From: Patescibacteria group bacterium
GTDB lineage: Bacteria; Patescibacteriota; Patescibacteriia; 2-01-FULL-39-33
Length of the DNA: 64,000 nt
Direction: 5' to 3'
Assembly (NCBI GenBank): GCA_041662745.1
Contig: JBAZRV010000001.1
Coordinates: 69,837 to 133,836, forward strand
The translations under genes and the position numbers were made by a program. Under the pieces are notes generated by a model. That model did no database searches and was not told the DNA's origin. It was given only the letters and a program-made list of their open reading frames with translations. Numbering within the stretch: the first letter of the stretch is position 1; the number at the start of each line of letters is the position of its first letter. Positions 7,950 through 56,358 of this stretch are shown here, piece by piece.

Positions 7950-8085
7950 TCCGGCCGGCGGCAACTAACGGCTCGCAAATAAAAATAAAACCGATTCGGC
8001 TGACCGAGTCGGTTTTATAAATTGAGATTTATATCCTGATTGGCAAAGCTTGCTCTAAATGTTTTCTAGCTGCGCTAAAACGAAA

Positions 8086-8466
8086 TTAGTTGATGTTTTC
8101 CAGCTGCGCTAAAACGAAATTAGTTATGGCATAAGCGGCAAAAATAATAACTAAACCGATAACGGCATTATAGATCATCTTCTTGGCTTTTTCCACCTTC
8201 TTTTCGTCACCCTGAGCAGTCATCCACCAGAAGCCGGCATAAATAACGATCAAGACCAGAATCACTCCCAAAACTCCCAAGACAATGCCAATGGCTGTTC
8301 CAATCATTGGCATCAAATCACCACTGCCCAATTGGCTCTCTAATCCGGTTTCATCAAGAAAAGTTCCGAATTCAACGGCGCGAACAAGCAAAGGCGCAGA
8401 TAAAGCCATTACAGACAAAGCCAACGCCAGACCTTGCTTGCCGATTTTTTTAATCATTTTTTTCAT
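8086..8466 (-). CDS. VirB2/TrbC-like pilin-family small membrane protein, paralog 1
   Basis: The track ORF runs to 8664, but the ATG at 8466 (MKKMIKKIGKQG...) has a signal peptide. Two TM helices flank the shared motif IYAGFWWMTAQGDEKKVEKAKKMIYNAVIGLVIIFAAYAI. Confidence 0.5.
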   Translation of the reverse strand: MKKMIKKIGKQGLALALSVMALSAPLLVRAVEFGTFLDETGLESQLGSGDLMPMIGTAIGIVLGVLGVILVLIVIYAGFWWMTAQGDEKKVEKAKKMIYNAVIGLVIIFAAYAITNFVLAQLENIN

Positions 8467-8512
8467 AATTTTTATTTTAGTTATTTTAATGCTAATTTTT
8501 TGGGCTATACTC

Positions 8513-8962
8513 TCAATCAGCAGGGTCATCCGGATTAGTCGGTAAACCTTTGAATTCCTGCGAAGTAACCGCCTGACTGCCGGAGCCGACCCGTTGCAAT
8601 TGATCCAGAACAAAAGCGGTGATCGCCCAAGCGCCGGCCACGATAGCCAAACCGATAACGGCATTATAAATCATTTTCTTGGCTTCATCCACTTTCTTCT
8701 CATTGCCCTGCGCCGTCATCCAAGTAAAGCCGGCATAAATCAGCAGTAAAATCAATAAAATGCCCAAGACACCCAAAACCGCCTTCACTATTCCGCCGAC
8801 AATAACCGGCAAACTGCCCTGGCCTATGCCCTGTAACCCAGTTTGCTGGCCCACTGCGCCCAGATTGGTCAAACCCTCCTTAACCTGCGCCTTTGCCGGG
8901 GCGAGAGCAAAAGCAAAAGCGACAAACAGAATAAAAATTGAAATTATAAGTGTTTTTTTCAT
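8513..8962 (-). CDS. VirB2/TrbC-like pilin-family small membrane protein, paralog 2
   Basis: Signal peptide MKKTLIISIFILFVAFAFA, a Gly-rich TM helix, and the shared motif IYAGFTWMTAQGNEKKVDEAKKMIYNAVIGL. Confidence 0.5.
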   Translation of the reverse strand: MKKTLIISIFILFVAFAFALAPAKAQVKEGLTNLGAVGQQTGLQGIGQGSLPVIVGGIVKAVLGVLGILLILLLIYAGFTWMTAQGNEKKVDEAKKMIYNAVIGLAIVAGAWAITAFVLDQLQRVGSGSQAVTSQEFKGLPTNPDDPAD

Positions 8963-9051
8963 AAGAGGATAAGAGGATAAGAGGAAATTAGCAGATCACA
9001 AAATATTTTATCATCTCCTAATCTCCCCCTAAGGGGAGAAAATAATCTTGA

Positions 9052-9450
9052 CTAAGCTCCGGTACTGCCGACAATCGCTCGCAAATTGCTCATGACGAAC
9101 ATGGCAATGGCATAAGCGGCAAAAATAATGACTAAGCCGATGATACCGGCATAAATCATTTTCTTGGCCTTGTCAACCTTATCTTGTTCACCGCCGGCAG
9201 TCATCCAGATGAAACCGCCGTAAAGGATGATCAAAACCGCGATAACGCCCAAAAAGCCCATGGCTACGTTCAGGATTCCGCCAATAATACTATTGAGGTT
9301 TCCTTGTTCAATCCCGGCCGTGCTGGCTATAAGATCTAAATCAATGTTTTGCACATCATCCTGCGCGCTGACCAAAACCGGCAAAGCGAACATGGACATC
9401 GCCACGACAATCAACATGGAAGCCAATAATTTCTTTAAAGTTTTTTTCAT
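9052..9450 (-). CDS. VirB2/TrbC-like pilin-family small membrane protein, paralog 3
   Basis: Signal peptide followed by LYGGFIWMTAGGEQDKVDKAKKMIYAGIIGLVIIFAAYAI. A terminator hairpin lies at 9014..9031. Confidence 0.5.
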   Translation of the reverse strand: MKKTLKKLLASMLIVVAMSMFALPVLVSAQDDVQNIDLDLIASTAGIEQGNLNSIIGGILNVAMGFLGVIAVLIILYGGFIWMTAGGEQDKVDKAKKMIYAGIIGLVIIFAAYAIAMFVMSNLRAIVGSTGA

Positions 9451-9595
9451 TCTTTGTCACCTCCCTTCCGTGCTTGCAATCGTCAGATTTTTAATTGTGA
9501 TCGCAGCTGCGACATCGCAATACCTTACCCGACAGAAGCAAAATTTAAATTATTATTTTAGAGCACTGTTTTTTATCGGATGATCCCCTTGCTCT

Positions 9596-9937
9596 TTAGC
9601 CGGCGGCGGGAACCAAGATGCTGAACACGAAAGTCACGACAGCATAAGAAGAGAAAATAACCAATAACCCCGCAACAGCCCAAATCATGACGGTCTTGCC
9701 TTTTTTGATATTATCGGCGCTAATGCCGGCAGTCATCCATAGTATGCCGCCATAAATAAAAGACAGGAGAGCGGCGATGCCGACAAGGCCTAAAAGCGCA
9801 TTAATCAGCCGAGCGGCCAGAGCGGGAATCGGTTCGTCTGGCAACTTCAACGGATCAATCAATTGGACCGCTGAAACTGAAAGCGGCAAAATGATAAGAA
9901 GCAACGAGCACAATATTGTCTTAAAAAAATTTTTCAT
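9596..9937 (-). CDS. VirB2/TrbC-like pilin-family small membrane protein, paralog 4 (divergent)
   Basis: Signal peptide followed by IYGGILWMTAGISADNIKKGKTVMIWAVAGLLVIFSSYAV. Confidence 0.45.
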   Translation of the reverse strand: MKNFFKTILCSLLLIILPLSVSAVQLIDPLKLPDEPIPALAARLINALLGLVGIAALLSFIYGGILWMTAGISADNIKKGKTVMIWAVAGLLVIFSSYAVVTFVFSILVPAAG

Positions 9938-9947
9938 AAAATTTTCA

Positions 9948-10370
9948 CTAAACGCAAGTAGTTCCGAAGGAACTGCCGACCAAGGAAGTAAATAAAAAGT
10001 TTACCATGGTAAAAGCGGCTAAAATTATAACTAAAGCGATAACCGTATTAACCATCAAGCTTTTGCCTTTCTTGATTTTATTCTGATCGCCGAAAGATAA
10101 CAGCCAAAACCAAGTACCGCCATAAATAAACAACAGCAAGGCGACAATGCCGGAAAAAGACAGGATCATATTAGTGCCGGTAATGCCAACCTGAAGCAAA
10201 TCGCAAAGACCGCAAACGCCGTTACAAAAACATTGATCGCTGATATCTTTGAGTAAATAGGAAGACGGGCCAGTGGTCGGCTTGGCCGTACAGGCGGCCA
10301 AAACTGCCGGAGTATTCAACGCCAGCAACACCAATAAAACACTCAATATTTTCAGTCCCTTTCTAAACAT
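9948..10370 (-). CDS. VirB2/TrbC-like pilin-family small membrane protein, paralog 5 (with an extra Cys-rich insert)
   Basis: Signal peptide, a Cys-rich segment (CFCNGVCGLCDLL), then IYGGTWFWLLSFGDQNKIKKGKSLMVNTVIALVIILAAF. Confidence 0.45.
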   Translation of the reverse strand: MFRKGLKILSVLLVLLALNTPAVLAACTAKPTTGPSSYLLKDISDQCFCNGVCGLCDLLQVGITGTNMILSFSGIVALLLFIYGGTWFWLLSFGDQNKIKKGKSLMVNTVIALVIILAAFTMVNFLFTSLVGSSFGTTCV

Positions 10371-10406
10371 AAGCGTATTATAGCAAAAATATGATAATTA
10401 CAAAAG

Positions 10407-11825
10407 CTAATATTGCTGGGTTACTGTCTGGTTAATCTTATCCACGGCTACGCCGATAACCTTGGATAATTCCTGCCGGGGATCGGACATCCTGAGATAC
10501 TGCTCAATCATTTCTATCATAGCCTGCTTGGCCGCATCAAAATTCTTGCCCTTGTACCAACTGAAAGCCGAAGGCGCCTGATAGGCCGAGGGATACAAAT
10601 CCTCGTTATCCAATTGGCTGTCGCGCAAATCGCGCAAAGCGGTCGGCTTGACCGTTTTGGCCAAAAACTTTTTTATTTCCGGATAACTCTTATTGGTTCC
10701 GGCGTCATTGATAAACAACAAGAAATCCCACGACTCATTGGGGTGCGTTGATGATTTGGTAACGGTTTCCACCCAATAATCAGCATAATTCTTGCTGGGA
10801 TTGCCGGCAATCTGAGGAATTGGCGCCACGCCGAAATTAACCCGCGACTGCGCCCGCACCTGAGGGATGTTAAAGTTATAACCGAAGAAAAAAGCCACCT
10901 TGCCCTGAGTAAAAGCGTCAAAAGAATTGGGCAGGGAAGCGTCCCAGGAATAAACTCGTTTGCCCACGGTGGCAAAATCGGTATAAAACTGCAAAGCGGT
11001 CTGGCCGGGGTTGACCGTCTTGTAACCGCCGCTGCCGTCTGCTTGTTGGATAGTCTTAAAAAAAGTAACATAACCATTGCCATCAGCCATTGTCGCTCCG
11101 GCCTGCATCATTAAAACGGACAAAATATCAAAGGCGTAATTGACATTGTAACCCATGCCTAAGGCCGCTCCGGCCACCAAAATCTTCTGGGTATCGGAAA
11201 CTTTGGTGATCTTTTCTACGGCATCCTGAAACGCCGACCAATCAGTGGGAATTTGAGCAACACTGTTCTGATTCAATAAATCCTTGTTATAAAACATGAT
11301 CAGCGACTCCAGACTAAGCGGCAGACCGTAAATCTTATTATCCATAATTACATCATTGCTGACGGTATCAAAAAATAAAGCCTTCATTTCCCGGACGGTG
11401 GGCGAAATTTTTGTTCTTAACTCAACAACCTGTTCTTTCTGGATCGTGCCCTTTTCTATAATGTAACCCATTTGGTATTTGGCTGGCAAAGGTGAGATTT
11501 TATTCTTATACTTGGGCAGCCAAGTAACAGGAATGGAGAAGATATCCGGTCCGCGGTCTTCGGCTAAGGCGTTAAGCAAATAGCTCTCATATTCCTCCAT
11601 GCGGAACTTGCGGTAATTGATGGTGATATTGGGATGTTGGACTTGGTAATCTTTGATAACAGCGTCAAAGGCGTCAGAATCATCCCAAACGCGCCAATAA
11701 TTCAAAGTAATCGGCTTAACAGCTTCTTGTTCGGCGGAGCTGAGAAGCTTGCAACCGAAGCCGGCAGTAGCCAACACTAACGCTAATGTAGCTAAAGCAA
11801 GGAGATAAATTTTTTTATTGGTCAT
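10407..11825 (-). CDS. extracellular solute-binding lipoprotein (ABC transporter family 1 substrate-binding protein, sugar-type)
   Basis: Lipoprotein signal with lipobox LVLATAGFGC. The length and composition are typical of SBP_bac_1 family proteins. Confidence 0.65.
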   Translation of the reverse strand: MTNKKIYLLALATLALVLATAGFGCKLLSSAEQEAVKPITLNYWRVWDDSDAFDAVIKDYQVQHPNITINYRKFRMEEYESYLLNALAEDRGPDIFSIPVTWLPKYKNKISPLPAKYQMGYIIEKGTIQKEQVVELRTKISPTVREMKALFFDTVSNDVIMDNKIYGLPLSLESLIMFYNKDLLNQNSVAQIPTDWSAFQDAVEKITKVSDTQKILVAGAALGMGYNVNYAFDILSVLMMQAGATMADGNGYVTFFKTIQQADGSGGYKTVNPGQTALQFYTDFATVGKRVYSWDASLPNSFDAFTQGKVAFFFGYNFNIPQVRAQSRVNFGVAPIPQIAGNPSKNYADYWVETVTKSSTHPNESWDFLLFINDAGTNKSYPEIKKFLAKTVKPTALRDLRDSQLDNEDLYPSAYQAPSAFSWYKGKNFDAAKQAMIEMIEQYLRMSDPRQELSKVIGVAVDKINQTVTQQY

Positions 11826-12857: not shown

Positions 12858-13181
12858 ATGGATAATGACTTTATCAAATCATTCTTAGAAAAATTAGTGG
12901 CTGAAGCCGGCTTAGACCAAATGTCCCCCGAATTTAAGGCGCAATATATGGGTAAATTGGAAGAAACGCTTAACCAGCAACTGGGCTTGATTCTGTTGCA
13001 AAACCTTGATGAAGCCAAACAGCAGGAGTTCCAAGCTATGATTGACAGCAAGACTCTGGATAACGCCAAAATCCAAAAGCTGGCCGATCAAATACCGGAT
13101 TTTGATCAAAAAATTAAAGACGGTCTGCTGGCTTTTGCCAACGACTTCATTACTCTGGCTCAAAAGAATAAGCCGGCATAA
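12858..13181 (+). CDS. small helical hypothetical protein (107 aa)
   Basis: ORF with helical composition. It is the first of three tightly spaced co-directional genes. Confidence 0.45.
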   Translation: MDNDFIKSFLEKLVAEAGLDQMSPEFKAQYMGKLEETLNQQLGLILLQNLDEAKQQEFQAMIDSKTLDNAKIQKLADQIPDFDQKIKDGLLAFANDFITLAQKNKPA

Positions 13182-13184
13182 GCT

Positions 13185-13379
13185 ATGGTCCAAAAAACAA
13201 AAAAAATCGCCACTAAAGGCGACTTGGCGCGGGAACTGAAAAAACTGGATAAATTATATCGGGAGACGATGTTGCAATTAAAAAAAATAAAAAATGAGGG
13301 CCGTAAAATGCTAGAAATCCAACAAAAGAAATCAGATGAAGAAAAAATTAAAGCGATCCTAAAAAGTTTAGGCAAATAG
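13185..13379 (+). CDS. small basic coiled-coil hypothetical protein (64 aa)
   Basis: Lies 4 nt after the upstream stop and 4 nt before the downstream start, which suggests translational coupling. Confidence 0.4.
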   Translation: MVQKTKKIATKGDLARELKKLDKLYRETMLQLKKIKNEGRKMLEIQQKKSDEEKIKAILKSLGK

Positions 13380-13382
13380 CTT

Positions 13383-16300
13383 ATGGCGAAAAAACAAAAA
13401 CAACCGCCGGACAATCCGTCAAGGCCAAGAGGCGAAGCCGAACAAACGTTCGGTTCATCTTTGGGTGATAATCCGGAATTGACCAAACTGTTTGCCGAAC
13501 TCAATGCTGCGCCCGAAGAACCGTCCACCAATCTTGATCTAGGAGAAGCGAAAAAGCTTATTACGGAATTAGAGGCCACCATTCAAGCGGAAGTGGGCGC
13601 TGCTGGCGACACTGCGGAATCAACGGAGGCGACAGCGGAGGCGGTTCAAGATTTTTCTCTGGCGGCCATAGCGGCCAGGGCGCTGTTGGACAGCTGGTTA
13701 GCAGATGGGGCAGGAACTGAAGATGGGGAAGAATATGAAGATGAAAATGGAGAGGAGACGGACGAGACTGAAAAACCAATAATTCCGATTGAACCTGTCG
13801 TACCAGCGCCTGATATAACAGAAGCCCCGGAAAAAAAGACGGCAACGCTTTCAACACCTGAAGAAGACAGGCCTATTCCCGTTGAGGAAACAGCCCCGAT
13901 TCCCGTTGCAGAAACAACAACTCAAGAAACGGTCCCGTTACCGCCAACGCCGGAATCAACTTCAGAAAAAACAGAGACTGCAGTACCGTCGACCGAATTT
14001 ATAAATCCTGAATCGCCACTATTGACTTCGGAATTGACTCCGGAAAAACTATTACATATTCTGGACTCTCTTGAAACACCCTCGCCGTTGGTTACCCGCA
14101 AAAGCATCGTAGAAATATTTAATGAGTTGAACTCCCGGAGACTGGTTGCCCAAAGAACGGGTGAGGATAATGTCGCGACATTAAGCGCCGCTGAAAAAAT
14201 GCGGGCCCAAGACGAGGCCGGCTTTGTTTCCGTTGAAACGGTCAAGTCAGGATTAAGCGAGCTACCGGAAACCCGATTAATGGAAATATTGTCAGATCCT
14301 CAAAAGGAAGGCAATGCCGGTTTGCTGACGGAGCTGATTAGGAATTATGCTGAAGCGTCCGGCTTGGATAATAAAGAAACGCAACGAATTTTCCAACAGC
14401 AAGAAAAAAAATTACGCCGGGAAGCGCAACAGAGATTGGCTGAGGGGAAAAGCTTAAAAAAAGAAATGGGCAAGGCCTTGGCTAAAAGCGCCCTCTACAT
14501 CGGCGGCGGCGTTGGCATTTCTCTTGCCACCGGCGGCCTGGCTTCCTTTTTCTCGCCCCTGGCGATCGGCGCCATCAGATCGGCGGATATTTACCTTACT
14601 GCCAAAAAGAACAAAAAAGAGGGGGGGGCAAAACTGCAAGAAATCAGGCAAGAGTTGGCTAATGACGAATCAGCTAAAGGAGCTTATCTGGAAGAATTCT
14701 TTGCCGACCTGGCCGTAGCCAAACAATTGCAATTAGGCCAAAATCAAGAAGGTTCGCTGGCCGATTGCTTGACTGCCAATCCCGATATCCTGGGAAATAT
14801 TTCAGAAGACGAAAAAGCCGGCGACATCCGGGGGTTAGAAATTTTAGAAAAGCATTATAATTTATTAAATAAAGCCAACACCGGCTGGCTGAATAATCAT
14901 CCCTGGGCGAATAAGGCGATCAAAGGATTGGATAAGGTATTCTTGGCCGGCGGAAGCAGCGCCGGAGAAAAAACCGTCACCAGTGCGGCATTGTTTGGCA
15001 TCGGCCAGGCCCTGCGTTACGGCGGAGCCGGCGCTTGGGGCAGACGAACAGTAAGCGGTTTGGCCGGCGCCAAGTTGGGAGCGATCGGAGCCGAGTATCT
15101 GAGCGGAAAAAGTGGCTGGGGAGAAAAAATTGATGTTGAAAAACATATAATTGATCAGGAAGCAGAGGCTGATGCTATTTTTGAAAAATTCAAGGAGTTA
15201 AAGTCAGAAAAAACAAATCTTGACAGTAAAAAATACAAACGAAACGCCGTTAAAACGGCCGGGGTAATCGCCGGCGCTTTGGCCGGCATAGCTTTGGGCG
15301 AAGCGGCCAGCGCCGCAACCCATAAAATCAGTTCTTGGCTGCAAGGCGAAGCAGCGCCGGTTACCGACGCCGGTTCCGCTTCGACGGAAACCGCGCCGCC
15401 GGCCGCCGCCAAAGTTGAACAGGCTGATTTAATGCCGCAGAAAGAGCAATTGGCTTTGGCGACTATCGGCAAAGGCGAGGGCATTGAACACGCCCTGCAC
15501 CGGCAATTGGAAGCCAACGCCAAGGAGCTCGGTTATGCCGGCGATCTGGAAAACAAAAGCGCCCTGCATCATTGGGCGGGCATGCGAGCGCATCAAATAG
15601 CTGTTGCCGAGCATTATGTTGATCCGAAAACCGGAGCGGAAGTCCGTGTCAGCGGTGCCGGCATCGGTCATGCCCAATATATTTTAGATGACAACGGGCA
15701 TATCCACGAATTCATAGACGGCCACCAAACCGGCGAATCTGGAACGATCGCCGCCAAAGCGTTTGAATACGCTTACGAAAAACCGACGACTCCGGCGACG
15801 ATAATTAGCGAGGCAACGCCTGAGGCCGGACATATTTCTGAGGGCAATGTAACCGCCAGTCTAAATAATCTTGATGCTAAATACCCCGGTTCGGCGGAGC
15901 TGATCACGCAAGCGACCATGGAAACAACCGGCCATGCCAATCAACAAGAACTCATTGATGTAACCGATTATTTTTATCATCACCCCAATTTCAAACCGTC
16001 GGCCGGACTGATTGAGCTGGTAACCAGCCATGATCCCCAAGCCAACCGTCTGCTCGGCTTTTTGGAACACCACCAAGTTGCTGATAACCTTAAGATGGTG
16101 GAACTGATAAACTCCAACGACATCTTTGCCGACACTAAAAACATGCCTAACTGGCTGGAAGTATTTTTGGGCTCAACCGAGGGGCGCAATGAAGGCGTGG
16201 CCTCATCGCTGGAGCGGATCTTCCATAATAACGGCTTAAGCGATCATTACAAGAGTGAATTCCATATGCCCGATTTCCAGGTATCGCAAACCCATGCCAG

Positions 16301-16553
16301 CGCCTTCACCGGCGATATTGCCTTTAAAACCCCGGCACCCCTAAACTCAATGCTGACCGGCGGCAAACCGGCAATGATTGATTGGCTTTATGATCCGTCA
16401 AAAGGTTCTTTCAGGGCCACGATTAATTTCCGCGGCCAACTCATCGGTGAAGCATTTGCGCCTCAGCCCGGCGATAATAACCCTAACCGAATTCTGACCC
16501 GAACCTTCGAATCATTGCTAGATAAACTCAAAGACAAGGTGGCCGGCAAATAA
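13383..16553 (+). CDS. large hypothetical protein (1056 aa) with an acidic Pro/Thr/Glu-rich disordered N-terminal region and several Gly-zipper hydrophobic segments
   Basis: Long ORF. It contains low-complexity acidic segments (EDGEEYEDENGEETDETE), putative TM or Gly-zipper segments (GGGVGISLATGGLASFFSPLAIGAI; AGVIAGALAGIALGEAASAA), and a His-rich C-terminal region. Confidence 0.55.
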   Translation: MAKKQKQPPDNPSRPRGEAEQTFGSSLGDNPELTKLFAELNAAPEEPSTNLDLGEAKKLITELEATIQAEVGAAGDTAESTEATAEAVQDFSLAAIAARALLDSWLADGAGTEDGEEYEDENGEETDETEKPIIPIEPVVPAPDITEAPEKKTATLSTPEEDRPIPVEETAPIPVAETTTQETVPLPPTPESTSEKTETAVPSTEFINPESPLLTSELTPEKLLHILDSLETPSPLVTRKSIVEIFNELNSRRLVAQRTGEDNVATLSAAEKMRAQDEAGFVSVETVKSGLSELPETRLMEILSDPQKEGNAGLLTELIRNYAEASGLDNKETQRIFQQQEKKLRREAQQRLAEGKSLKKEMGKALAKSALYIGGGVGISLATGGLASFFSPLAIGAIRSADIYLTAKKNKKEGGAKLQEIRQELANDESAKGAYLEEFFADLAVAKQLQLGQNQEGSLADCLTANPDILGNISEDEKAGDIRGLEILEKHYNLLNKANTGWLNNHPWANKAIKGLDKVFLAGGSSAGEKTVTSAALFGIGQALRYGGAGAWGRRTVSGLAGAKLGAIGAEYLSGKSGWGEKIDVEKHIIDQEAEADAIFEKFKELKSEKTNLDSKKYKRNAVKTAGVIAGALAGIALGEAASAATHKISSWLQGEAAPVTDAGSASTETAPPAAAKVEQADLMPQKEQLALATIGKGEGIEHALHRQLEANAKELGYAGDLENKSALHHWAGMRAHQIAVAEHYVDPKTGAEVRVSGAGIGHAQYILDDNGHIHEFIDGHQTGESGTIAAKAFEYAYEKPTTPATIISEATPEAGHISEGNVTASLNNLDAKYPGSAELITQATMETTGHANQQELIDVTDYFYHHPNFKPSAGLIELVTSHDPQANRLLGFLEHHQVADNLKMVELINSNDIFADTKNMPNWLEVFLGSTEGRNEGVASSLERIFHNNGLSDHYKSEFHMPDFQVSQTHASAFTGDIAFKTPAPLNSMLTGGKPAMIDWLYDPSKGSFRATINFRGQLIGEAFAPQPGDNNPNRILTRTFESLLDKLKDKVAGK

Positions 16554-20994: not shown

Positions 20995-22290
20995 TCACTT
21001 CTTATACCTGATGTTTAAGGTTGATACGGCCAGAAGTATCCAAACCAATAAAGACAAGTCATTCTTAAAATAAGGCACGTCCACCAATCCATGGATCACG
21101 ATTTCCAAAGCTACGGCCATAAAAACCACGCTGGCAATCTTATCAAACGGCCATTCCTGGCTGTAGCGCCAAACAATGGAAAAAATATTCTTCAGATTGT
21201 CATAAACAAACTTGCCCGCCAGCCACAAAAAAGCGCCGATACCCAAAACTCCGACTTCGCTCCAAAAATTAAACAGAATATTGTGCGGGTAAGGAAACAC
21301 CTCAAACCAATGGGTATGATAAGGCAAAATAGAGGCCGGATAGCCGGCCAAACCGCCGCCGAAAAACCAATGATCCTTAAGCATCTGCCGGGTTTCGCCC
21401 CAGATTAACCGGCGGATAAAACCGGAGTAATCCTGCAAGGATACCTTTTGCCAAATCAAATCGCGCCAACCGCTGTTAAGCAGAACAATTGTAGCGGAAA
21501 AGACCAAAAATATCAAGGCATAGCCGCGGGAACGGCGGTTAAACAAAAGCAGTAAGAAACTGACTGCTAAAACAGCCAGGATAGCGCCCTCTGATTGCGC
21601 CAAGACAATAACGCTGAAGCCGACGATAATAACCAGCCATTTCAGCCACTGTCGCTGGCGGTTGGACAGATAAAGCAACAGCGAATCTTGGTTGCGATAA
21701 AACAAAAAACCGACGAAGGCGATAATAATCGGCCCGAAAAACAAGCCCAGGGCGTTGGGGTAACCATAAGTGCCGACCACCCGGTCAACGCTGCCGGTAG
21801 CGGTTAAAAACGCTTGGGGCACACCCCAACCGGTGAGTTTTTGCGCGTAACAAATCAGTCCCATGTATAACACCGACAAGCCCAAACTCCAAAAAACCCC
21901 CTCTATCTGCCGGCGGACATCAACTAATGAAATCAAAATGAAATAAAACATGATCGGCTCCGCAAAATACGCTTTCCAGGCGCCTAAGGCCTTTAACGGC
22001 AGAGGCGAGACAAAAACCGCAATCGTAACAGCAATCAAAACCGCCAAGGCCGGATAAAACAAAGGATCGGATTTGATGACCGACCAATGGAAGTTCCTTT
22101 TCAATAAAACGACAATAAATAAAATCAGCACCATTGCCTCCAGCCAAGTAAAAGGAATGGTAAAAATCTGAAAACGCACGACATAGGTCGGCAATAAGGC
22201 AGTAATCAGGTAAGCGGCCCATAACGGACGAAAATAGGCCAGAAAGAAAAACAGGATAGCGGCCAAACCGATAAGGAACATTGACGCCAT
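20995..22290 (-). CDS. O-antigen ligase-like (Wzy_C family) polytopic membrane protein
   Basis: About 12 TM helices with a large periplasmic loop, the architecture of O-antigen ligase/polymerase-like proteins. Confidence 0.45.
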   Translation of the reverse strand: MASMFLIGLAAILFFFLAYFRPLWAAYLITALLPTYVVRFQIFTIPFTWLEAMVLILFIVVLLKRNFHWSVIKSDPLFYPALAVLIAVTIAVFVSPLPLKALGAWKAYFAEPIMFYFILISLVDVRRQIEGVFWSLGLSVLYMGLICYAQKLTGWGVPQAFLTATGSVDRVVGTYGYPNALGLFFGPIIIAFVGFLFYRNQDSLLLYLSNRQRQWLKWLVIIVGFSVIVLAQSEGAILAVLAVSFLLLLFNRRSRGYALIFLVFSATIVLLNSGWRDLIWQKVSLQDYSGFIRRLIWGETRQMLKDHWFFGGGLAGYPASILPYHTHWFEVFPYPHNILFNFWSEVGVLGIGAFLWLAGKFVYDNLKNIFSIVWRYSQEWPFDKIASVVFMAVALEIVIHGLVDVPYFKNDLSLLVWILLAVSTLNIRYKK

Positions 22291-22296
22291 ATGATT

Positions 22297-23718
22297 TTAT
22301 ATTTTTTTTAATTTAATCATGTCCAGCACTTCGCTCTTATTATAACCCCTAAACAAATAGAGGGCCAAAAAATAAATAATCGCGCCGGCCAGCACTAAAG
22401 TCAAAATATTCTGATTCAATAACGGATATAAACATAAACCCATAACCGCCGAAGCCAGGACGGCTTTCCAAAAAGCCCTTAAACTAATCCTGGTTTTGGT
22501 TTCGCGACGCAAAATATAAAAAGCCGATAAAGTGATGATCGCTTCCGTTGCTACGGTCAGGATTGCCCCAGCCCAATAAGAGAATATGGGAATAAAAATC
22601 AAATAAGCGGCCAAAGAGAACACGGCGTCAAAAAGATAAAAGCTGATCATTTTCTTCTGCAGACCGCAGGCCACAATGGCATAGCCGGCCAAAGCGCCGA
22701 AATAAATCATGGCCGCTCCGACGATCAAAATCCTTAACGGTCCGGCGGCGATAATAAAATCCGCTCCGGCCACAAACCCCATAATTTTTTCCGCTAACAG
22801 CCAAGTGGCTATGACCATGGGTACGGCCAAAATAGCCATAAAATCAAAAGACTTTTGCAGGGTCTTTTCAAACAGCCCTTTGCTGGTCAAATAAAACTCG
22901 GTTAACAGAGGCAAAATCAAACCGAGAAACAAGTAAGGAAACTGAATCAGCGTTTCCAACACCTTATAGGCCGCGCCATAAATGCCGACATCTTCAGCCG
23001 GCCGAACCAAAGATAAAATAATCGTATCGGCGCGAAAATACACCAGGGTCAAAGAAATGGTAATGGCTAACGGCCAGGACACTTCCCATATCTGCCGCCA
23101 AACTTTAAAATCCGCTTCCAATCTCAAACTCAAATGTTTGCGCGCTTTGATTGCCAAATATAAAAAGTTCACCAGACTGCCCAAAGACACGGCGGCAATG
23201 ACAGCCAACAACCCCAAATCGGCGGCAACAGCCAGCCAGACGCCAAGAAGTAAAATAAACCTGCCCCAAACTTCGGCAATGGCCACTTCCGCCATAGCCA
23301 TCTGCTTCTGATATAGGCCGATCAAAACCGATTGCAAAGAAATGAAGAAAAAGGAGAGGGAGGCCACGCCGACACCCAGCTTAACGGCCAACGGATAAGG
23401 TAAAAACCAAATCAGGGCCGAGGCCGTACCCAAAAAAACTACGGCGGAAAGCAGGCGGACAGTCAGGATATTGGCAAAAATCTTATGTTGATTCGCACCG
23501 GGACGAGAAAGCATCTGGGCGGTAGTCATCTGCAGGCCGAAATCAATCAAGACGCCAAAAAACTGCAAAAAAGAAATAACGGTGGTGTAATAACCGAAAC
23601 CTTCACGCCCCAAATAACGCGTCATCAAAGCGATAGTGACCAAACCCAAAACCGTACCGGCGATTTTGCCGCTGATTTGCCAAAAAGTATTCTGCGCGAT
23701 TTTTGCCGCTAAACCCAT
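22297..23718 (-). CDS. polysaccharide biosynthesis protein / oligosaccharide flippase (MOP/Wzx family)
   Basis: 473 aa with about 14 TM helices and an N-terminus typical of Wzx-like flippases. Confidence 0.6.
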   Translation of the reverse strand: MGLAAKIAQNTFWQISGKIAGTVLGLVTIALMTRYLGREGFGYYTTVISFLQFFGVLIDFGLQMTTAQMLSRPGANQHKIFANILTVRLLSAVVFLGTASALIWFLPYPLAVKLGVGVASLSFFFISLQSVLIGLYQKQMAMAEVAIAEVWGRFILLLGVWLAVAADLGLLAVIAAVSLGSLVNFLYLAIKARKHLSLRLEADFKVWRQIWEVSWPLAITISLTLVYFRADTIILSLVRPAEDVGIYGAAYKVLETLIQFPYLFLGLILPLLTEFYLTSKGLFEKTLQKSFDFMAILAVPMVIATWLLAEKIMGFVAGADFIIAAGPLRILIVGAAMIYFGALAGYAIVACGLQKKMISFYLFDAVFSLAAYLIFIPIFSYWAGAILTVATEAIITLSAFYILRRETKTRISLRAFWKAVLASAVMGLCLYPLLNQNILTLVLAGAIIYFLALYLFRGYNKSEVLDMIKLKKI

Positions 23719-23727
23719 AAATTAATT

Positions 23728-24747
23728 TTATTGCGCCCAAAGTTTTTTCGTCTCATCCCAATAGCCGTGATAATCCTTTTCCGTTTTCATGTAATACCAC
23801 CATTCCGCGCCCCACAAATAAGCCTCATCAAAACCGGCGCGGCGGGTAAAGGAAATGTTTTCTTTGAGTTGCTGCAAGCTCATGGACAAATTATGGTCGG
23901 CCAAGGACATCTGAGCCAAATTGACATTGGGCTTATGCCAGCTTTCCGCTTGCAATTCGGCCACAATGACTTTTTGGATCGGCGTAAACCATTTTATCAA
24001 CTGCACCCGCGCCCAATAAAAGGCCGGGGGCGTAAACCAACGGAAATAGCCGATTTGCGGATTATACACCACGCGATACAAAGTTGATCCCAAAACTTCT
24101 CCGCCGACATGGGAAATCGGCCACCAAGTGGACAACTCGCCGCTGTCGGTGACTAAAATCGGCTTAGCTGTCAATTTTTTTACTTGAGCAATCTCCTCTT
24201 TTAACAACGGTTTGTTGGGTGGCGGACAGATGCCGAAAGTGGACAGAAACGGTTCATTCTCCACTTGGAAATATTTGATCTGCTGGTTATCCTTATATCT
24301 GCCGACCACCGCCTGGACGAACTTTAACTGGACTTCTTCGGCGTCAATCGCTTTCAAATCCTTAAGCCAAATCGGATCGTGGCATTCCGGCCAACGCGGC
24401 AAACGGCGCCCGACCGCCAAAACTATTTTTATCTGACGTTTGGACGCCTCGTTAATCTGCCAATCCAAATCCTTAAAATCATAACGGCCCCTGACCGTCT
24501 CAACCTGATTCCAATAAGCGGACAAGCGAATATTATCAACTTTCAAATCATCTAGAATGGCCAGATATGTTTTTTGCCAATCCAATCCTAATTCGGTCTG
24601 CGCATAGACCGAAGAAAAAGTTACGCCCCACTCCAGATGCCTCCGAGAAAAATCAAGGGAATAACTGGCTATTATCCCGCCGATTAAAGCCAATAAAATT
24701 ATGCAAACTGTCGCTAAAAACCAATGGCGACGCAAAAAAAATATCAT
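23728..24747 (-). CDS. membrane-anchored glycoside hydrolase-like protein (clan GH-A TIM barrel, tentative)
   Basis: N-terminal TM anchor and a candidate catalytic acid/base motif (FQVENEPF, the NEP of clan GH-A). Confidence 0.4.
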   Translation of the reverse strand: MIFFLRRHWFLATVCIILLALIGGIIASYSLDFSRRHLEWGVTFSSVYAQTELGLDWQKTYLAILDDLKVDNIRLSAYWNQVETVRGRYDFKDLDWQINEASKRQIKIVLAVGRRLPRWPECHDPIWLKDLKAIDAEEVQLKFVQAVVGRYKDNQQIKYFQVENEPFLSTFGICPPPNKPLLKEEIAQVKKLTAKPILVTDSGELSTWWPISHVGGEVLGSTLYRVVYNPQIGYFRWFTPPAFYWARVQLIKWFTPIQKVIVAELQAESWHKPNVNLAQMSLADHNLSMSLQQLKENISFTRRAGFDEAYLWGAEWWYYMKTEKDYHGYWDETKKLWAQ

Positions 24748-24772
24748 AGTATTTAATGGATTACTGATTGTT

Positions 24773-25666
24773 TCATAAGGCTAAAATAGCCAGGCCCGCG
24801 ACAATGAAAGCCGTAGCAATAATTTTCTGCCACAAAATTTTCCTAGTCATTTTTTCTTTCATGGCGCCGGGTTGGATCCTTTGCACTGCTATGACAATAA
24901 GCAATAAAAAGACATACTGCAATCCTTGCAGGGCATTAATGATAGCCGTCGCGCCGACAGAAATGGCGATGGCAAAATTAACCAAGATTGACGATAGGGC
25001 GCCCGAAGTCTGACCGAAAAGCAAAAGTCCGCTGGTCTGTTTCTGGGGACGGCGCACGACGGCAAAAAAAGAGCGTCGATGGCGCGGCCAGGCAAACAGG
25101 CATAAGGCGAATAATAAGGCGCCGAGACGCGTCATGACAAAGGGCGTGATAAAACTACCTTGAGAATTGTAAGCGTATTTGGCGATAATCAACGAGACGG
25201 CAAACAGTATGGCGGAAAAAATAGCGGCGCCATAAGCGACTTTGTCGGCCTTACCCTTGCCATAAGAAATCAGCACCGTGCCCATGATGATAACAAAAAA
25301 AGCCAACAAAAATTTTTCAGATACGGCCTCACCGACGAACAGCCAAGCCAAAGGCAAAACGATTAAAGGTTGCAAACCGCCTAAAAAAGGAATGATGCGC
25401 GAAGCCTCGCCTCTGTTTAGGGCGACAAACATCAGATAAATTCCGGCGCCGAATAAAAAACCGGAAATCAACTCCCAAGCCAATTGCGAGCCGGTCGGCT
25501 GGGACCAATCAAACGGCAAAAGCACCAGCGCCAGAATTCCCAAAAAAGAAATGATGATGGTATAAACGGCGGGATTGGGAATTTTTTTATTGAGCAGGAA
25601 TTTATCAGTCGCCAGAGCGGCGGCGTTTAGGGCGTACGAAATAATAGTAATAGGCAACCAAAACAT
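24773..25666 (-). CDS. EamA/DMT family transporter
   Basis: Ten TM helices with a duplicated EamA-like topology. Confidence 0.6.
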   Translation of the reverse strand: MFWLPITIISYALNAAALATDKFLLNKKIPNPAVYTIIISFLGILALVLLPFDWSQPTGSQLAWELISGFLFGAGIYLMFVALNRGEASRIIPFLGGLQPLIVLPLAWLFVGEAVSEKFLLAFFVIIMGTVLISYGKGKADKVAYGAAIFSAILFAVSLIIAKYAYNSQGSFITPFVMTRLGALLFALCLFAWPRHRRSFFAVVRRPQKQTSGLLLFGQTSGALSSILVNFAIAISVGATAIINALQGLQYVFLLLIVIAVQRIQPGAMKEKMTRKILWQKIIATAFIVAGLAILAL

Positions 25667-28848: not shown

Positions 28849-29028
28849 AATTAAAAGGTACTTTATTAGAGCGACTTGTTCGCTCTTTTTTTATTAACAT
28901 AAACGACTACAACTGTCGAAAATTTTCGACAGGAATCAGCTAATTTTTAAAAAACACTGATAAATAATCATTTATAAACAAAAAACTGTCGAAAAACTTC
29001 GACAGCTTCATTGATTTAGCTACACAAT

Positions 29029-29135
29029 ACCCGCGGCTGCCTACTTTCCCCACAAGGAGTATCATCGGCGCTGGAGGTCTTAACTGCTGAGTTCGGGATG
29101 GGATCAGGTGTATCACCCCCGCTAGAGCCACGGAA
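29029..29135 (-). rRNA. 5S ribosomal RNA (boundaries approximate)
   Basis: Reverse complement contains the 5S core ...CCTGATCCCATCCCGAACTCAGCAGTTAAGACCTCCAGCGCCGATGATACTCCTTGTGGGGAAAGTAGGCAGCCGCGG. Helix I pairs CCGUGGCU with AGCCGCGG. Confidence 0.8.
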
Positions 29136-29530
29136 ATTCTATAGCTAAATCAGTAAAGAAATGTTATGAGCCGCGGCAATCAAGCCGCAAAACTCATGGG
29201 TGTGACAGCGAATTACATATCCCGACAAGCCGGCGAACCGGCAGCGGGGTGTTATCCATTCTTGCGATTAAACTAAACCATTAGTATCGCTCGGCTGAAC
29301 GCATTACTGCGCTTACACCTGCGACCTATCAACCTCCTCGTCTCGAAGGGGTTTAATGAAATCTAATCTTGAAGACAGCTTCACGCTTAGATGCTTTCAG
29401 CGTTTATCTTAACCGAACGTAGCTACCCAGCGATGCCCTTGGCAGAACAGCTGGTACACTAGAGGTTCGTCACTTCCGGTCCTCTCGTACTAGGAAGTGG
29501 CCTTCTCAAATTTCTGCGCCCATGGTAGAT

Positions 29531-30284
29531 AGGAGACCGACAAATATGTTACTCTTTCGAAATCATTATCGAAAGGCTCCAAATATTTCTATTGGAGTCT
29601 GCATATCGCTATGCAGTTCGGACTATATCTTATCGCTTACGGCGATTCTGACGTATAGTCTCTGAGGATTTCAAATAATCTAATAATTTATCCTGGCTTA
29701 CCTTGCGGTAAGCGCCTTGCTTATTCATAGAATAAGCCAGTTTAATAATATATTGCGCACCAGTTTTGGTGCTATGCTTTCCAGTGCTTAACATTTTAAC
29801 TACCTTCTTAAAGGTTAAAAATGTTTTTTGCTTATTAGAGAGCAAGGGATACTGATCAAAAAAAGGAATAATCTTGTTTTCCAAATCAAGCCTGTTTCTA
29901 ACGACAAATACCTGAGTATCATCTTTGGTATTTTGGCGATGGTTACATTTGATATAACCGCAACCGAAATACTTTTGGATTTCTTCTAGGGTTTCGTGTC
30001 TTAAAAAGCTTTGATTAATGTGGAATTCAGGAATGAATTTCAAATTGCATTTCATTTTATCATCACGATAAATGGCAATATGGAATGTCCCCTCTCCTTC
30101 AGTAAACCCGGTAATATACCACGGACTTAGATGACTTGATCTTTCCTGCTGATTGTCTGCACTCAACACATTTTTACTCATAATACATTAATTATATCAC
30201 GAGTAGTGTGAGATACCCAAGTCCCCCTATAGGGACTTTTCCAGAGTTTCCAGCATTTAGTCAGATTTATAGACAGCAAAGTCT
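29531..30284 (-). mobile_element. group I intron in 23S at the I-CreI/I-CeuI-type site (E. coli position about 2593), encoding a LAGLIDADG endonuclease
   Basis: Exon ...AGAUAGGAGACCGA ends at 29530 and ACUGUCUCACGACGUUC resumes at 30285. This is the conserved ...GUGAGACAGU|UCGGUC junction. The intervening 754 bp have no rRNA similarity. Confidence 0.75.
29630..30181 (-). CDS. LAGLIDADG homing endonuclease (single-motif type, 183 aa), intron-encoded
   Basis: LAGLIDADG-like motif WYITGFTEGEGTFHIAI near the N-terminus. The size is typical of I-CreI-like homodimeric enzymes. Confidence 0.8.
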   Translation of the reverse strand: MSKNVLSADNQQERSSHLSPWYITGFTEGEGTFHIAIYRDDKMKCNLKFIPEFHINQSFLRHETLEEIQKYFGCGYIKCNHRQNTKDDTQVFVVRNRLDLENKIIPFFDQYPLLSNKQKTFLTFKKVVKMLSTGKHSTKTGAQYIIKLAYSMNKQGAYRKVSQDKLLDYLKSSETIRQNRRKR

Positions 30285-30328
<44 letters not shown>

Positions 30329-30362
30329 TGGCGAACAGCCAAACCCTTGGGAGCTTCTCCAC

Positions 30363-30395
<33 letters not shown>

Positions 30396-30934
30396 GAACC
30401 TGGTCGTCGATATGGACTCTTGGACCAGACTAGCCTGTTATCCCCGGAGTAGCTTTTATCCGATGAGCTTCCACCATCCTACATTGAATGGTCGGATCAC
30501 TAAATTCTACTTTCGTAACTGCTCGACTTGCAGGTCTCGCAGTAAAGCTGGCTTGTGCTTTTGCGCTATCACTCCGATTTCCATCCGGAGCTAGCCAACC
30601 TTTGTAAACGCCTCCGTTACATTTTGGGAGGCAACCGCCCCAGTTAAACTACCCACCATACACTGTCCCTCTCCCGGATTACGGGAGGAAGTTAGAATTA
30701 TAATATAACAAGGGTGGTATTTCACTGGCGCCCGAAGGCTCCCACCTATTCTAAACATATTAGATCACAATTCAGTGCAAAGTTGTAGTAAAGCTTCACG
30801 GGGTCTTTTCGTCTAACCACGGGTAGGAGGCATCTTCACCTCCCTTGCAATTTCGCTGAGTACTTCGCTGAGACAGTTGTCAAGTCGTTATGCCATTCGT
30901 GCGGGACGGAACTTACCCGTCAAGGAATTTCGCT

Positions 30935-31625
30935 TCAAGTTTCCTTTCTTGGGACTCTATCTTCATCCCGATGGGATGCTTAGCGTTTGGTCTCTGAGGA
31001 TTCTAAAAATCGAGCTGGTAATCGACGGTTCATTTGTTCAATGATCCCGGCGATTTGTATTTTTCCCTTCTCCTTAAGATGTTTTCCTTGCTTTATCAAC
31101 TTTATTATCTTGATAAATTTTTTGAAATCATCCGCCTTGGCTGTTTGCAGCCGGCGAGCAGAGAAAAATGGGATTATGACTTCGGATAAATCACTGATTG
31201 ATCTTACGCAATACCGATAAAGATTCTCTTGATGGTTATCTTTACGGCGGTTGATATAAATCTTGCCGCAGCGAAAAAATTTTTGTATTTTTTCTAGTGC
31301 TTTAAGACTTTTTTCTCCCTGCGTAATCACAAATTCAGGAAAAATCTGCCAGCCTGATTTGGTAGTGTGATTTTTGATGATACTGACTGAAAAACAGCCC
31401 TCACCATCAGTAAATCCGACTATCCAATGCTCGAATTTCAGCCTTTCCTGCTGATTGATCGACATAAATTAAGTTATTTTCTATGGTATAATTTTACCAT
31501 AGTTTTGTCGATTTTCCCAGCATATGGCTAAGTATTTTGGACCATTCTTATATTGCTATAAGAAGAGGCAGCGTTAATAGATAACGGTCCCAGTCCTTTT
31601 GCATCCGAATTATTTCCGATGCAAA
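30935..31625 (-). mobile_element. group I intron in 23S at E. coli position about 1917 (domain IV, helix 69 region), encoding a LAGLIDADG endonuclease
   Basis: Exon ...CAAGGAAUUUCGCU ends at 30934 and (A)CCUUAGGACCGUUAUAG resumes at about 31626. This matches the conserved GGUCCUAAGGUAG|CGAAAUUCC junction. Confidence 0.7.
30980..31465 (-). CDS. LAGLIDADG homing endonuclease (single-motif type, 161 aa), intron-encoded
   Basis: Motif HWIVGFTDGEGCFSVSI. Paralogous to the 29630..30181 protein. Confidence 0.8.
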   Translation of the reverse strand: MSINQQERLKFEHWIVGFTDGEGCFSVSIIKNHTTKSGWQIFPEFVITQGEKSLKALEKIQKFFRCGKIYINRRKDNHQENLYRYCVRSISDLSEVIIPFFSARRLQTAKADDFKKFIKIIKLIKQGKHLKEKGKIQIAGIIEQMNRRLPARFLESSETKR

Positions 31626-32457
31626 ACCTTAGGACCGTTATAGTTACGGCCGGCGTTCATCTGCGCTTCGATTCAAAGCTGCCCCGGTAAACCGGTTGAC
31701 CTCTCCTCTTAACGTTCAGACACTGGCCAGGCATCAGCCCCTATACATCAGCTTGCGCTTTAGCAGGGACCTAAGTTTTTGGTAAACAGTCGCTTGACAT
31801 CTTTAGCTGCGCCCCAAATAAATTTGGGGAGGCCTTATCCCTAAGTTACGGCCGATTTTTTGCCGAGTTCCTTAGCGAAGTTTCTCTCATACACCTGAGG
31901 CTACTCGCCTCATCCACCTGTGTCGGTTTAAGTACGGTTGCCTTGATCTTAACCCTAGAAGTTTTTCATGGCACTCGGTTTAATATAATTGAGTCCGCCT
32001 TGCGGCTTCCTCTGCTGCCGTATTCGTTGCTTAATGACCGGCGGATTTGCCTGCCGATCACAACTACTAACGTCATCGTCATAGCCATAGGACGATATAT
32101 CTCCCCTGATGCGTCACTCCTTCGGAAAATCAAGCCAGCGCAGGAATATTAACCTGCTCATCCATCGGCTACGCCTTTCGGCCTCGTCTTAGGACCGGCT
32201 AACCCTGGGTCGATTCTCGTTGCCCAGGAAACCTCGGATTTACGGTGTCTAGAATTTTCATCTAGATTCTTGCTACTTATGCCAACATTCTTACTTCCTA
32301 GCAGTCCACCGCGCCTCACAGCTACGGCTTCGTTCCGCTAAGAACACTCCTCTACCACTCTATATAAATATAGAATTCGCAATTTCGGTACTATGTTTAG
32401 CCCCGATACATTTTCGGCGCAAGAAAACTTGACCAGTGAGCTATTACGCTATCTTTA

Positions 32458-32488
<31 letters not shown>

Positions 32489-33987
32489 TTGTCGCGGTCT
32501 TGATACCACCTTTTACACTTAACATAGATTTAGGGACCTTAATTGGCGATCTGGGCTGTTTCCCTTTTGACTGATGGACCTTAGCGCCCATAGTCTGACT
32601 TCCGAAATAAAGATTACCGGTATTCGGAGTTTGATTGAAGACAGTAACCTTGCGGACCTGTCCTCATTCAGTGCTCTACCCCCGGGTCTATTTTCGAAGC
32701 TAGCCCTGAAGCTATTTCGAGGAGAACCAGCTATCACGAAGTTCGATTGGAATTTCTCCGCTATCCACAGCTCATCCCCAAGTGTTGTACAGCTTGTGGG
32801 TTCGGGCCTTCCCAGACTGTTACATCTGGTTCACCCTGGCCATGGATAGATCACCTCGTTTCGGGTCTTATCCGCGCTACAATTGTTCGGACTATTAATC
32901 CTCGCTTTCACTGTGCCTTCTCCCCGAAGGGATTAAGCAAGCAACGCAGAATAAACTCGTTGGCTCATTCTTCAATAGGAACGCCGTCATCCAGAATTCG
33001 TATTGCTACGACCTTGGACTCCGACTCGTTTGTAAGCAAATGGTTTCAGATACTATTTCATCGCCCTAACCGGGCTGCTTTTCACCTTTCCCTCACGGTA
33101 CTTGTTCGCTATCGATCATCAAAAGTATTTAGCCTTGCCATATAGTCATGGCGGATTCCTACAAGATTTCACGAGTCCTGTAGTACTTTAGATTATAACG
33201 ACGGAAGTACGATTCTTTTCGCGTACGGGGCTTTCACCCGCTCTGGCCGGCTGTTCCAAAACCGTTCCGCTAAAAATTTTATTCCGCTCGGATACAAGTG
33301 CAATCCGCTGGTTATAATCATCACCCCAAAGCAGCAACGGGCACTCCTTTATGCCGACGCTACGCTTTCCCCTTGCGGGAAAAGTTTCACACCGGCAACA
33401 CTGCTAAGGTTTAGGCTGCTCCGCTTTCGCTCGCCACTACTCGCGGAATGCAATCCATAGATCCGTGTCCTGCTTACGCAGAAAACGGAACTAAGGATTC
33501 AATTTTTTCTTTTCCTCCAGCTACTGAGATGTTTCACTTCGCTGGGTTTGCGTTTGTAACCTATGAATTCAGTTACAAATGACGCGGGTTTGCCGCGCCG
33601 GGTTTCCCCATTCGGATATCTCCGGATCAAAGGTTGCTTGCCACCTCCCCGAAGCTTTTCGCAGGCTGCTACGTCCTTCATCGCCTTTTGATGTCTAGGC
33701 ATCCACCATTCGCCCTTAATGTTTAATCGCAAGAATCTGGATAACTTATAAAAAAGAAAATTGCCTTATTCTGTCATTCCCGAAAATTTGCAGTGAGTTT
33801 TCGACTAATGTCGAAACGAACCAAAATTTATCGGGAATCCAGCATTAAGAATTTCCTCTTGTAAGAGTTTTTCCTTATTCTGTATTTTATTACTAAAATA
33901 CTAAAAGTATGTACTCATTAATAATTGCAATTCGCTGCCACGCCCATAAATTTGGCGCGGCATTAAATTACCCATTTCTTTACTATG

Positions 33988-54882: not shown

Positions 54883-56358
<1,476 letters not shown>

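Follow-up and report, generated by a model that had tools for sequence, protein, structure and literature searches.

An operon of a predicted sugar-type solute-binding lipoprotein and five ordered VirB2-like pilin paralogs in a Patescibacteria genome

Much of bacterial diversity belongs to Patescibacteria, which live attached to other cells. The stretch of DNA analyzed here belongs to a Patescibacteria group bacterium (assembly GCA_041662745.1, contig JBAZRV010000001.1, positions 69,837 to 133,836; this whole stretch of 64,000 nucleotides, or 64 kb, is called the window hereafter) and harbors on its minus strand an array of five consecutive paralogous genes for small pilin-like membrane proteins (8086-10370, named c5 to c1 in the order of transcription). 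We show that this locus is a single operon, in which a gene for a solute-binding protein (SBP) lipoprotein of predicted sugar-binding type is followed by five pilins of the PF18895 family, and that the array is composed of three ancient subunit classes kept in a fixed order, i.e., SBP, A (c5), B (c4), C (c3) and extra C copies (c2 and c1). Purifying selection acts on all five pilins, and the array is a fixed set of subunits, not a variation cassette. We propose with moderate confidence that the pilins would form a heteromeric structure assembled by a type IV secretion system (T4SS), with c3 as major subunit and the lipoprotein as partner.

Tandem arrays of VirB2-like genes are already known in Patescibacteria, in which 441 arrays of 2-11 genes were reported from 383 assemblies (Quinonero-Coronel et al., 2025; PMC12102498), and the locus of the window adds no new kind of system. 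Its interest lies mainly in the conserved coupling to an SBP gene, in the ordered subunit classes and in the separation of the array from the T4SS machinery. Both the upstream SBP gene and the prior publication of such arrays had been missed by the original prediction, a short note drawn from the DNA sequence of the window. The features of the locus are listed below in the order of transcription, with protein lengths in amino acids (aa).

10407..11825, minus strand: SBP lipoprotein gene, first of the operon, 472 aa, lipobox GFGC
9948..10370, minus strand: c5, pilin position 1, type A (decorated), 140 aa, PF18895 at 29.7 bits
9596..9937, minus strand: c4, pilin position 2, type B (shortest), 113 aa, PF18895 at 33.0 bits
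9457..9465, minus strand: extended Shine-Dalgarno site GGGAGGTGA before c3, inside the unstructured c4-c3 spacer
9052..9450, minus strand: c3, pilin position 3, type C, 132 aa, PF18895 at 37.1 bits
8978..9031, minus strand: long RNA hairpin directly 3' of c3, -28.2 kcal/mol, z -3.3
8961..8985, minus strand: 8-nt tandem repeat CCTCTTAT, 3.1 copies, ending at the c2 start codon (TRF)
8513..8962, minus strand: c2, pilin position 4, type C duplicate with a hydrophilic C-terminal tail, 149 aa, PF18895 at 37.5 bits
8086..8466, minus strand: c1, pilin position 5, type C duplicate, 126 aa, PF18895 at 37.7 bits
7981..8016, minus strand: intrinsic terminator at the operon end (GC hairpin and U-run), common to the convergent PGI gene

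Family and topology of the five pilins

The five tandem same-strand paralogs announced by the original prediction are indeed present, as indicated by the identity of the four other copies to c1 (49, 49, 34, and 29%), by mutual identities of 29-50% and by a hidden Markov model made from the five proteins, which retrieved exactly these five across the window (E 1e-36 to 1e-55). The start of c1 requires a comment, as the 192-aa form given by the open reading frame (ORF) lister begins inside c2; this form is contradicted by the gene called in a close relative, which encodes only 125 aa. A 34-nt tandem duplication (8059-8125, 2.0 copies, 96% identical) lies across the c1 stop codon: the TAA stop arises from its junction at the c1 3' end, and the ancestral ending ...LENI and stop (...LESI in the relative) is kept in the second copy.

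Comparison with the profiles of T4SS pilin families placed all five proteins firmly in PF18895 (T4SS_pilin), with scores of 29.7-37.7 bits for a gathering score of 26.6 bits. The NCBIfam model NF045849 (Mbov_0395 family pilin-like conjugal transfer protein, cutoff 40 bits) was passed by c1 (50.4 bits) and c2 (42.1 bits), nearly reached by c3 (37.7 bits) and not reached by c5 (25.7 bits) and c4 (19.6 bits). The classical family PF04956 (TrbC/VirB2) was matched at E<=1e-5 by the c4 orthologue of another locus of this kind (L003), and precomputed PF04956 matches stand beside PF18895 in 44 of the 120 best homologues. Identity with classical VirB2 is suggested by such remote sequence similarity. 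The small subunit of tripartite transporters (TctB/DctQ) was considered as another candidate family and rejected, given matches below the cutoffs (TctB at 1.7e-4) and a wrong number of helices.

All five pilins start with a signal peptide that has an AxA-type site, and hydropathy shows two hydrophobic helices with a short basic loop between them; similarly, an AlphaFold2 model of c3, for which 73 homologues were used, consists of two helices (49-84 and 89-130) with pLDDT >90. These features agree with the signal peptide and two-helix architecture initially described. The conserved sequence block that the same description attributed to every copy fits c1 to c3 in the alignment of the five proteins, and c4 and c5 match it only loosely. 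The Cys-rich insertion was rightly noticed but assigned to the most distal copy: it belongs to c5, the promoter-proximal pilin gene, which encodes six cysteines (27, 47, 49, 53, and 56 in a Cys-rich stretch, plus 139) and whose signal peptide ends with a lipobox-like LAAC.

The PF18895-type family is very large, with 76,984 representatives at 50% identity (E<=1e-3). Many of its members are poly-pilins, i.e., single ORFs with 2-16 hairpin repeats (e.g., P0361, P0363, and P0380), among which P0361 combines one signal peptide with six hairpins and is a 12-helix membrane protein. Others are giant fusions, in which one pilin domain is joined to proteins of about 3000-3500 aa (P0471, P0484, and a 3280-aa protein at 8470-18309 of L019). 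The c3 protein is 100% identical to one with the locus tag WC668_00385 from the metagenome-assembled genome of a Patescibacteria group bacterium. Pilin homologues were found in lineages including Buchanan-, Falkow-, Komeili-, Uhr-, and Magasanikbacteria, and the syntenic relative ADurb.Bin326 is assigned to ABY1 in Table S1 of the survey of arrays (PMC12102498); the genome of the window is probably that of a member of the class ABY1.

Operon structure, subunit order and expression signals

The genes are closely packed, with 36 nt between the SBP stop and the c5 start, 10 nt between c5 and c4, 145 nt between c4 and c3 (9451-9595) and 46 nt between c2 and c1. The upstream gene is, as judged from sequence similarity, that of a lipoprotein of solute-binding family 1 (carbohydrate-type): its orthologues carry PF01547 (SBP_bac_1) in 15 of 17 cases and PF13416 (SBP_bac_8) in 13 of 17, and the family profile retrieved binding proteins of sugar ABC transporters in the PDB (4qrz, 1.7e-27). 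The copy of the window itself gave no Pfam match at E<=0.01 and an under-threshold match to the NCBIfam model MalE (6.8e-10).

The association between both parts of the operon was investigated in 33 loci, namely the window and its relatives, including 30 further loci from a scan of species-representative genomes, nearly all of which present same-strand arrays of 2-16 copies. An SBP gene is located directly upstream of the pilin array in 21 of the 33 loci, at a distance of -32 to +181 nt in 20 of these 21 and of -8 to +36 nt in 16 of them, and the stop and start codons often overlap; such short gaps suggest translational coupling. Sampling in the reverse direction gave the same picture, since three of three further SBP homologues (47-52% identical) are followed by PF18895 genes, and at least 18 SBP matches equal pilin matches in the size of the longest contig. 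Genes for an ABC permease or ATPase (BPD_transp, ABC_tran) were absent from the window among ORFs of at least 120 aa and were not recurrent neighbors in the 33 loci. Our literature searches found no report linking SBP genes with pilin arrays.

Two relatives, whose c3 is 95% and 58-60% identical to that of the window, keep the whole layout of SBP, five pilins and convergent PGI, DHH and ClpP genes. When each pilin was compared with 11 other loci, the best match of c5 was at position 1 in 10 of them, that of c4 at position 2 in 10 and that of c3 at position 3 in nine; best matches of c2 were spread across positions 3-5, and both c2 and c1 seem to have arisen later by duplication of the position-3 type. 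In most arrays, the longest pilin is encoded at position 1 and the shortest at position 2, with 106-121 aa in most of them. This positional orthology holds between genomes whose pilins are only 40-60% identical.

Relative to the 95% relative (L001), dN/dS is 0.105 for c5, 0.118 for c4, 0.038 for c3, 0.175 for c2, and 0.054 for c1, in comparison with 0.015-0.10 for neighboring housekeeping genes. The most conserved copy is c3 (94.7% identity to L001) and the fastest evolving is c2 (77.9%). Because of both the positional orthology and the low dN/dS, the array is best described as a fixed heteromeric subunit set, not as a fast-changing repertoire.

Regarding expression, the independent termination of each gene that had been proposed could not be retained, as the array contains one true terminator, after c1, and one conserved hairpin, after c3. 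The segment 9014-9031, initially taken for a terminator, is part of a real hairpin, which extends over 8978-9031 and has no U-run. Elsewhere, the c4-c3 spacer folds no better than shuffled sequences (z -1.0), the c2-c1 gap is unstructured, and terminator-like matches in the array region are not above chance (5, vs. 3.7 +/- 1.9 expected). None of 200 shuffles was as stable as the hairpin following c3, whose sequence is identical in L001 and L002 despite a dS of 0.6-0.8 in the flanking genes, and 7-8 of 12 loci have a strong hairpin at this place (z -4 to -8). This element is a candidate attenuator or transcript-stabilizing structure. Likewise, 10 of 11 related loci have a stable structure after their last pilin gene. 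The 8-nt repeat CCTCTTAT is in single copy in L001 and L002 (10400-10472 in L001), a difference of 16 nt from the window, and its copy number accordingly shifts the distance between hairpin and c2 start by 16 nt between the window and the 95% relative.

The Shine-Dalgarno site of c3 is complementary to the 16S 3' end ...GGATCACCTCCTT present in the window, and in about 10 of 12 loci the corresponding motif GG(A/G)GGTGA is present before the c3-type gene and nowhere else in the array. Within the array of the window, c3 is the only gene to have a strong Shine-Dalgarno site and a hairpin after it. On the basis of these two signals and of the highest conservation, c3 is inferred to be the major subunit.

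Assembly machinery, known systems and rival readings

The window was scanned for T4SS machinery with Pfam on all ORFs of at least 120 aa and with phmmer using a patescibacterial T4SS ATPase. Two proteins were considered as possible machinery and rejected. The 1056-aa product of a divergent neighboring gene (13383-16553) was examined as a hidden VirB4, and it gave no P-loop match, has no Pfam or NCBIfam family, is of low complexity and contains a few hydrophobic segments. The 650-aa AAA protein (38575-40527) gave a generic AAA match only and no phmmer match to the T4SS ATPase. Among relatives, a pilin pair is located 2.4 kb from an 820-aa T4SS ATPase (DUF87, TrwB_AAD_bind, T4SS-DNA_transf) in L013/L018, and an orthologous ATPase (P0172) is encoded on the 842-kb Nomurabacteria contig that carries L014, a locus with an SBP and five-pilin module, but about 435 kb away from it. 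The genome of L003 is entered as VirB4-positive in Table S1 of the survey (PMC12102498), yet the 10 kb around its array contain no such gene, the ATPase of this genome being on another contig. The best 120 matches of a search with the L013 ATPase included neither the 249,088-bp contig of the metagenome-assembled genome of the window nor the 957,791-bp contig of the 95% relative.

By comparison with the published arrays of Patescibacteria, the array of the window is alike in Pfam family (PF18895/PF04956), in its same-strand tandem arrangement, in the divergence of its copies, in its chromosomal location and in its monoderm ultra-small host. It falls within the published definition, as it includes at least two tandem PF18895/PF04956 genes with strongly divergent copies in a Patescibacteria genome; published copies have a mean identity of 25% and a maximum of 54% (PMC12102498). 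It differs in its location, with no T4SS cluster around it or close to it within 64 kb, in that it is headed by an SBP lipoprotein gene, a feature absent from the main text of that survey, and in its ABY1-like lineage, whereas published arrays are most abundant in Microgenomatia and Saccharimonadia (PMC12102498).

With the VirB2/TrbC/TraA pilins of diderms, such as those of the Agrobacterium tumefaciens T-pilus and of the F-pilus, the proteins of the window share a signal peptide, a two-helix hairpin, a small size, a short basic cytoplasmic/lumenal loop and sub-threshold PF04956 matches for c1 and c3. On the contrary, their PF04956 scores stay below the gathering score, neither their sequence nor their fold matches solved VirB2 significantly, and they are encoded outside any VirB operon context, in a monoderm host, as five paralogs instead of one. 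The Mbov_0395/MMCAP2_0565 proteins of mycoplasma integrative and conjugative elements (ICEs) are alike in that c1 and c2 pass the NF045849 cutoff and c3 nearly does, both groups being from wall-poor or monoderm lineages with T4SSs of the MPF-FATA type. However, the array has no ICE genes, integrase or relaxase nearby, c4 and c5 are far under the cutoff, and NF045849 is labeled as an equivalog for ICE proteins, whereas the pilins of the window are encoded in a chromosomal operon.

A conceptual analogy may be drawn with the Bas system of Sulfolobus, in which small pilin-like membrane proteins are likewise encoded with sugar-binding proteins and needed for their surface function. The Bas proteins are type IV-pilin-like, have class III signal peptides and come with a PilB/PilC-type ATPase and membrane protein pair, whereas the proteins of the window are VirB2-like with signal peptides of Sec type, not class III. 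Work by Zolghadr and colleagues in Mol Microbiol in 2007 is said to describe this archaeal bindosome, where pilin-like proteins reportedly position sugar-binding proteins.

According to the reading that we favor, each pilin would be exported by Sec, cleaved and left in the membrane as a hairpin with both termini outside. The c3 protein would be made in excess as major subunit, with c5, c4, c2, and c1 as minor or specialized ones, and T4SS ATPases of the patescibacterial type, from genes located at other places in the genome, would assemble these subunits into one heteromeric structure of the envelope or surface, possibly a short pilus or conduit. The co-transcribed lipoprotein would work with this structure, for instance by binding host-surface glycans or capturing sugars. 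Several results weigh against such a model. As the original prediction had already stated, the window contains no VirB4, VirB6 or VirD4: neither the Pfam scan of ORFs of at least 120 aa nor phmmer with a T4SS ATPase retrieved any match. PF04956 (gathering score 27.9 bits) is matched below that score by c1 (20.3 bits) and c3 (20.0 bits) and gave no match for c2, c4 and c5. A Foldseek search of the PDB with the c3 model yielded only generic helical hairpins and no match at E<=0.001; the best one, non-significant, was the ATP synthase c subunit (E 1.1), and the conjugative pilus of Aeropyrum pernix (8dfu) ranked 21st (E 4.8, TMt 0.61). Similarly, the family profile found nothing significant in the PDB, A. 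tumefaciens VirB2 (8cue) being at E 4.3. Furthermore, for the many fused hairpins an oligomer embedded in the membrane is no less plausible than an extruded filament, no report of a filament was found in the literature for any PF18895 protein, and the role given to c3 is derived from expression signals only.

A T4SS-independent explanation, in which the hairpins would oligomerize as a membrane ring, pore or platform serving the SBP for surface sugar capture or adhesion, in a manner conceptually similar to the archaeal bindosome, draws on several of these points. The linkage between SBP and pilins is tight and reciprocal, the array is unlinked from T4SS genes in the window and in L014, no ABC permease or ATPase is found near the module, hairpins are naturally fused by 2-16 behind one signal peptide, polysaccharide genes are frequent neighbors, and the best fold match is a ring-forming protein. 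Nevertheless, this last match means little, given that a helical hairpin is a generic fold, and the family is homologous to pilin-like proteins of conjugation systems. Moreover, the pilin pair of L013/L018 lies next to a T4SS ATPase, VirB4 is also present in most Patescibacteria that carry pilins of this kind (PMC12102498), and among Saccharibacteria Candidatus Southlakia epibionticum harbors an essential array of six pilins inside its T4SS cluster (Wang et al., 2023; PMC10633639). We therefore regard a function without any T4SS as rather unlikely. A possibility with unrelated small membrane proteins, i.e., holins, bacteriocin-immunity or TctB/DctQ-like proteins resembling pilins through their hydrophobicity, could be argued from weak sub-threshold matches (TctB at 1.7e-4, DctQ, YajC, and others) and from the lack of significant structural matches to solved pilins. 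It appears very improbable, since all five proteins pass the PF18895 cutoff and that of no other Pfam family, an independent NCBIfam model of conjugal pilin-like proteins is also matched, and the window offers no phage or bacteriocin context.

The original prediction and the survey of arrays both considered that the paralogs may be alternative subunits, a repertoire for antigenic or phase variation or for matching host strains, antigenic or host-range variation having been proposed as a possible role of the published arrays (PMC12102498). Array copies are indeed divergent (29-50% identity), and lineages differ in how many type C copies they carry, from 1 to more than 10. In addition, c2 is the fastest-evolving copy and its tail is variable, close relatives have three copies vs. 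one of the 8-nt repeat preceding c2, and the 34-nt tandem duplication lies at the c1 3' end. However, positions 1-3 are orthologous between distant lineages, gene-wide dN/dS (0.04-0.18) is similar to that of neighboring genes, the expression signals mark one fixed copy, and the genes form one operon with intact starts, in which neither silent cassettes nor switches of invertible or long homopolymeric type were seen. A search of the array for silent cassettes, inverted repeats and long simple repeats found only the 8-nt repeat and the 34-nt duplication. The conserved order of the subunits, their dN/dS and the absence of switching devices at the array thus do not bear out a variable repertoire at this locus, which we consider quite improbable, and the ordered classes under purifying selection are evidence against the published idea of antigenic variation.

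Assembly by a distant T4SS remains our preferred reading, and the T4SS-like system with its pilin array is essential in the one species tested (PMC10633639). The comparative picture sharpens the question by pointing to a likely major subunit, to co-transcription with an SBP in many lineages and to distant T4SS ATPases, and it yields testable predictions on stoichiometry, partner protein and dependence on the ATPase. A bolder proposal, which we think unlikely, would make of the SBP and the ordered VirB2-like hairpins a distinct module, T4SS-unlinked and widespread in Patescibacteria of ABY1/Paceibacteria type, that acts as a scaffold presenting or serving the SBP. If so, the pilins would contribute to host feeding or attachment rather than to secretion, through a glycan-binding attachment pilus or a bindosome-like nutrient capture replacing the ABC permease.

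Neighboring genes and other features of the window

A gene for a GalU-like NTP_transferase frequently precedes the SBP gene. In three Magasanik-/Patescibacteria loci (L010, L012, and L016), three genes (c19-c21) with type IV prepilin-like N-termini (e.g., RGISLIETMVAV) are found upstream of the GalU-SBP-pilin block. Genes for envelope polysaccharides (Wzy_C, Polysacc_synt flippase, GH42-like, and EamA) recur near the SBP-pilin module, 10 kb away in the window (20995-25666, minus strand), directly upstream in L040 (2932-7661) and downstream in L038 (12556-16875).

The module is flanked by a divergent unit of three genes (12858-16553, plus strand), which encode a DUF5663-like protein of 107 aa, a protein of 64 aa and the low-complexity protein of 1056 aa. 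The unit is conserved beside the module in L001 (2925-6552, minus strand), L008 also has the DUF5663-like gene and a gene of about 1000 aa, and a similar large gene, of 1137 aa, is present in L003. The 1056-aa protein evolves fast, with 66% identity vs. 93% for the SBP.

The ribosomal RNA genes of the window are unlinked (29028-33729 and 54885-56359, both on the minus strand), with the 16S gene about 21 kb from the 23S gene. The 23S match spans 3478 nt, for a model of 2925 nt, and includes about 550 nt of insertions with internal ORFs (30980-31465 and 32747-33145); a LAGLIDADG endonuclease gene (29630-30181) lies between 23S and 5S. Downstream of the 16S gene, between tRNA-Ile and tRNA-Pro, a tRNA-Phe(GAA) gene missed by ARAGORN (53867-54180, minus strand) is interrupted in its anticodon loop by a group I intron (RF00028, 86 bits; about 240 nt), its exons being joined by eye as GCCGAGGTAGCTCAGTGGTAGAGCAGAAGACTGA and AAATCTTTGTGTCGCGAGTTCAATTCTCGCCCTCGGCA.

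A 1043-aa protein (58700-61831, plus strand) contains two T2SSE/PilB-GspE ATPase stretches (PF00437 at 757 bits, TIGR02533 at 899 bits) and represents a type IV pilus ATPase in tandem or fused form, unrelated to T4SS. Finally, the 650-aa AAA ATPase is followed by a 434-aa DUF6638 protein (38575-41916, plus strand) in a stretch of higher GC content (about 0.49-0.50) with several family-less ORFs, which may be a defense or mobile island.

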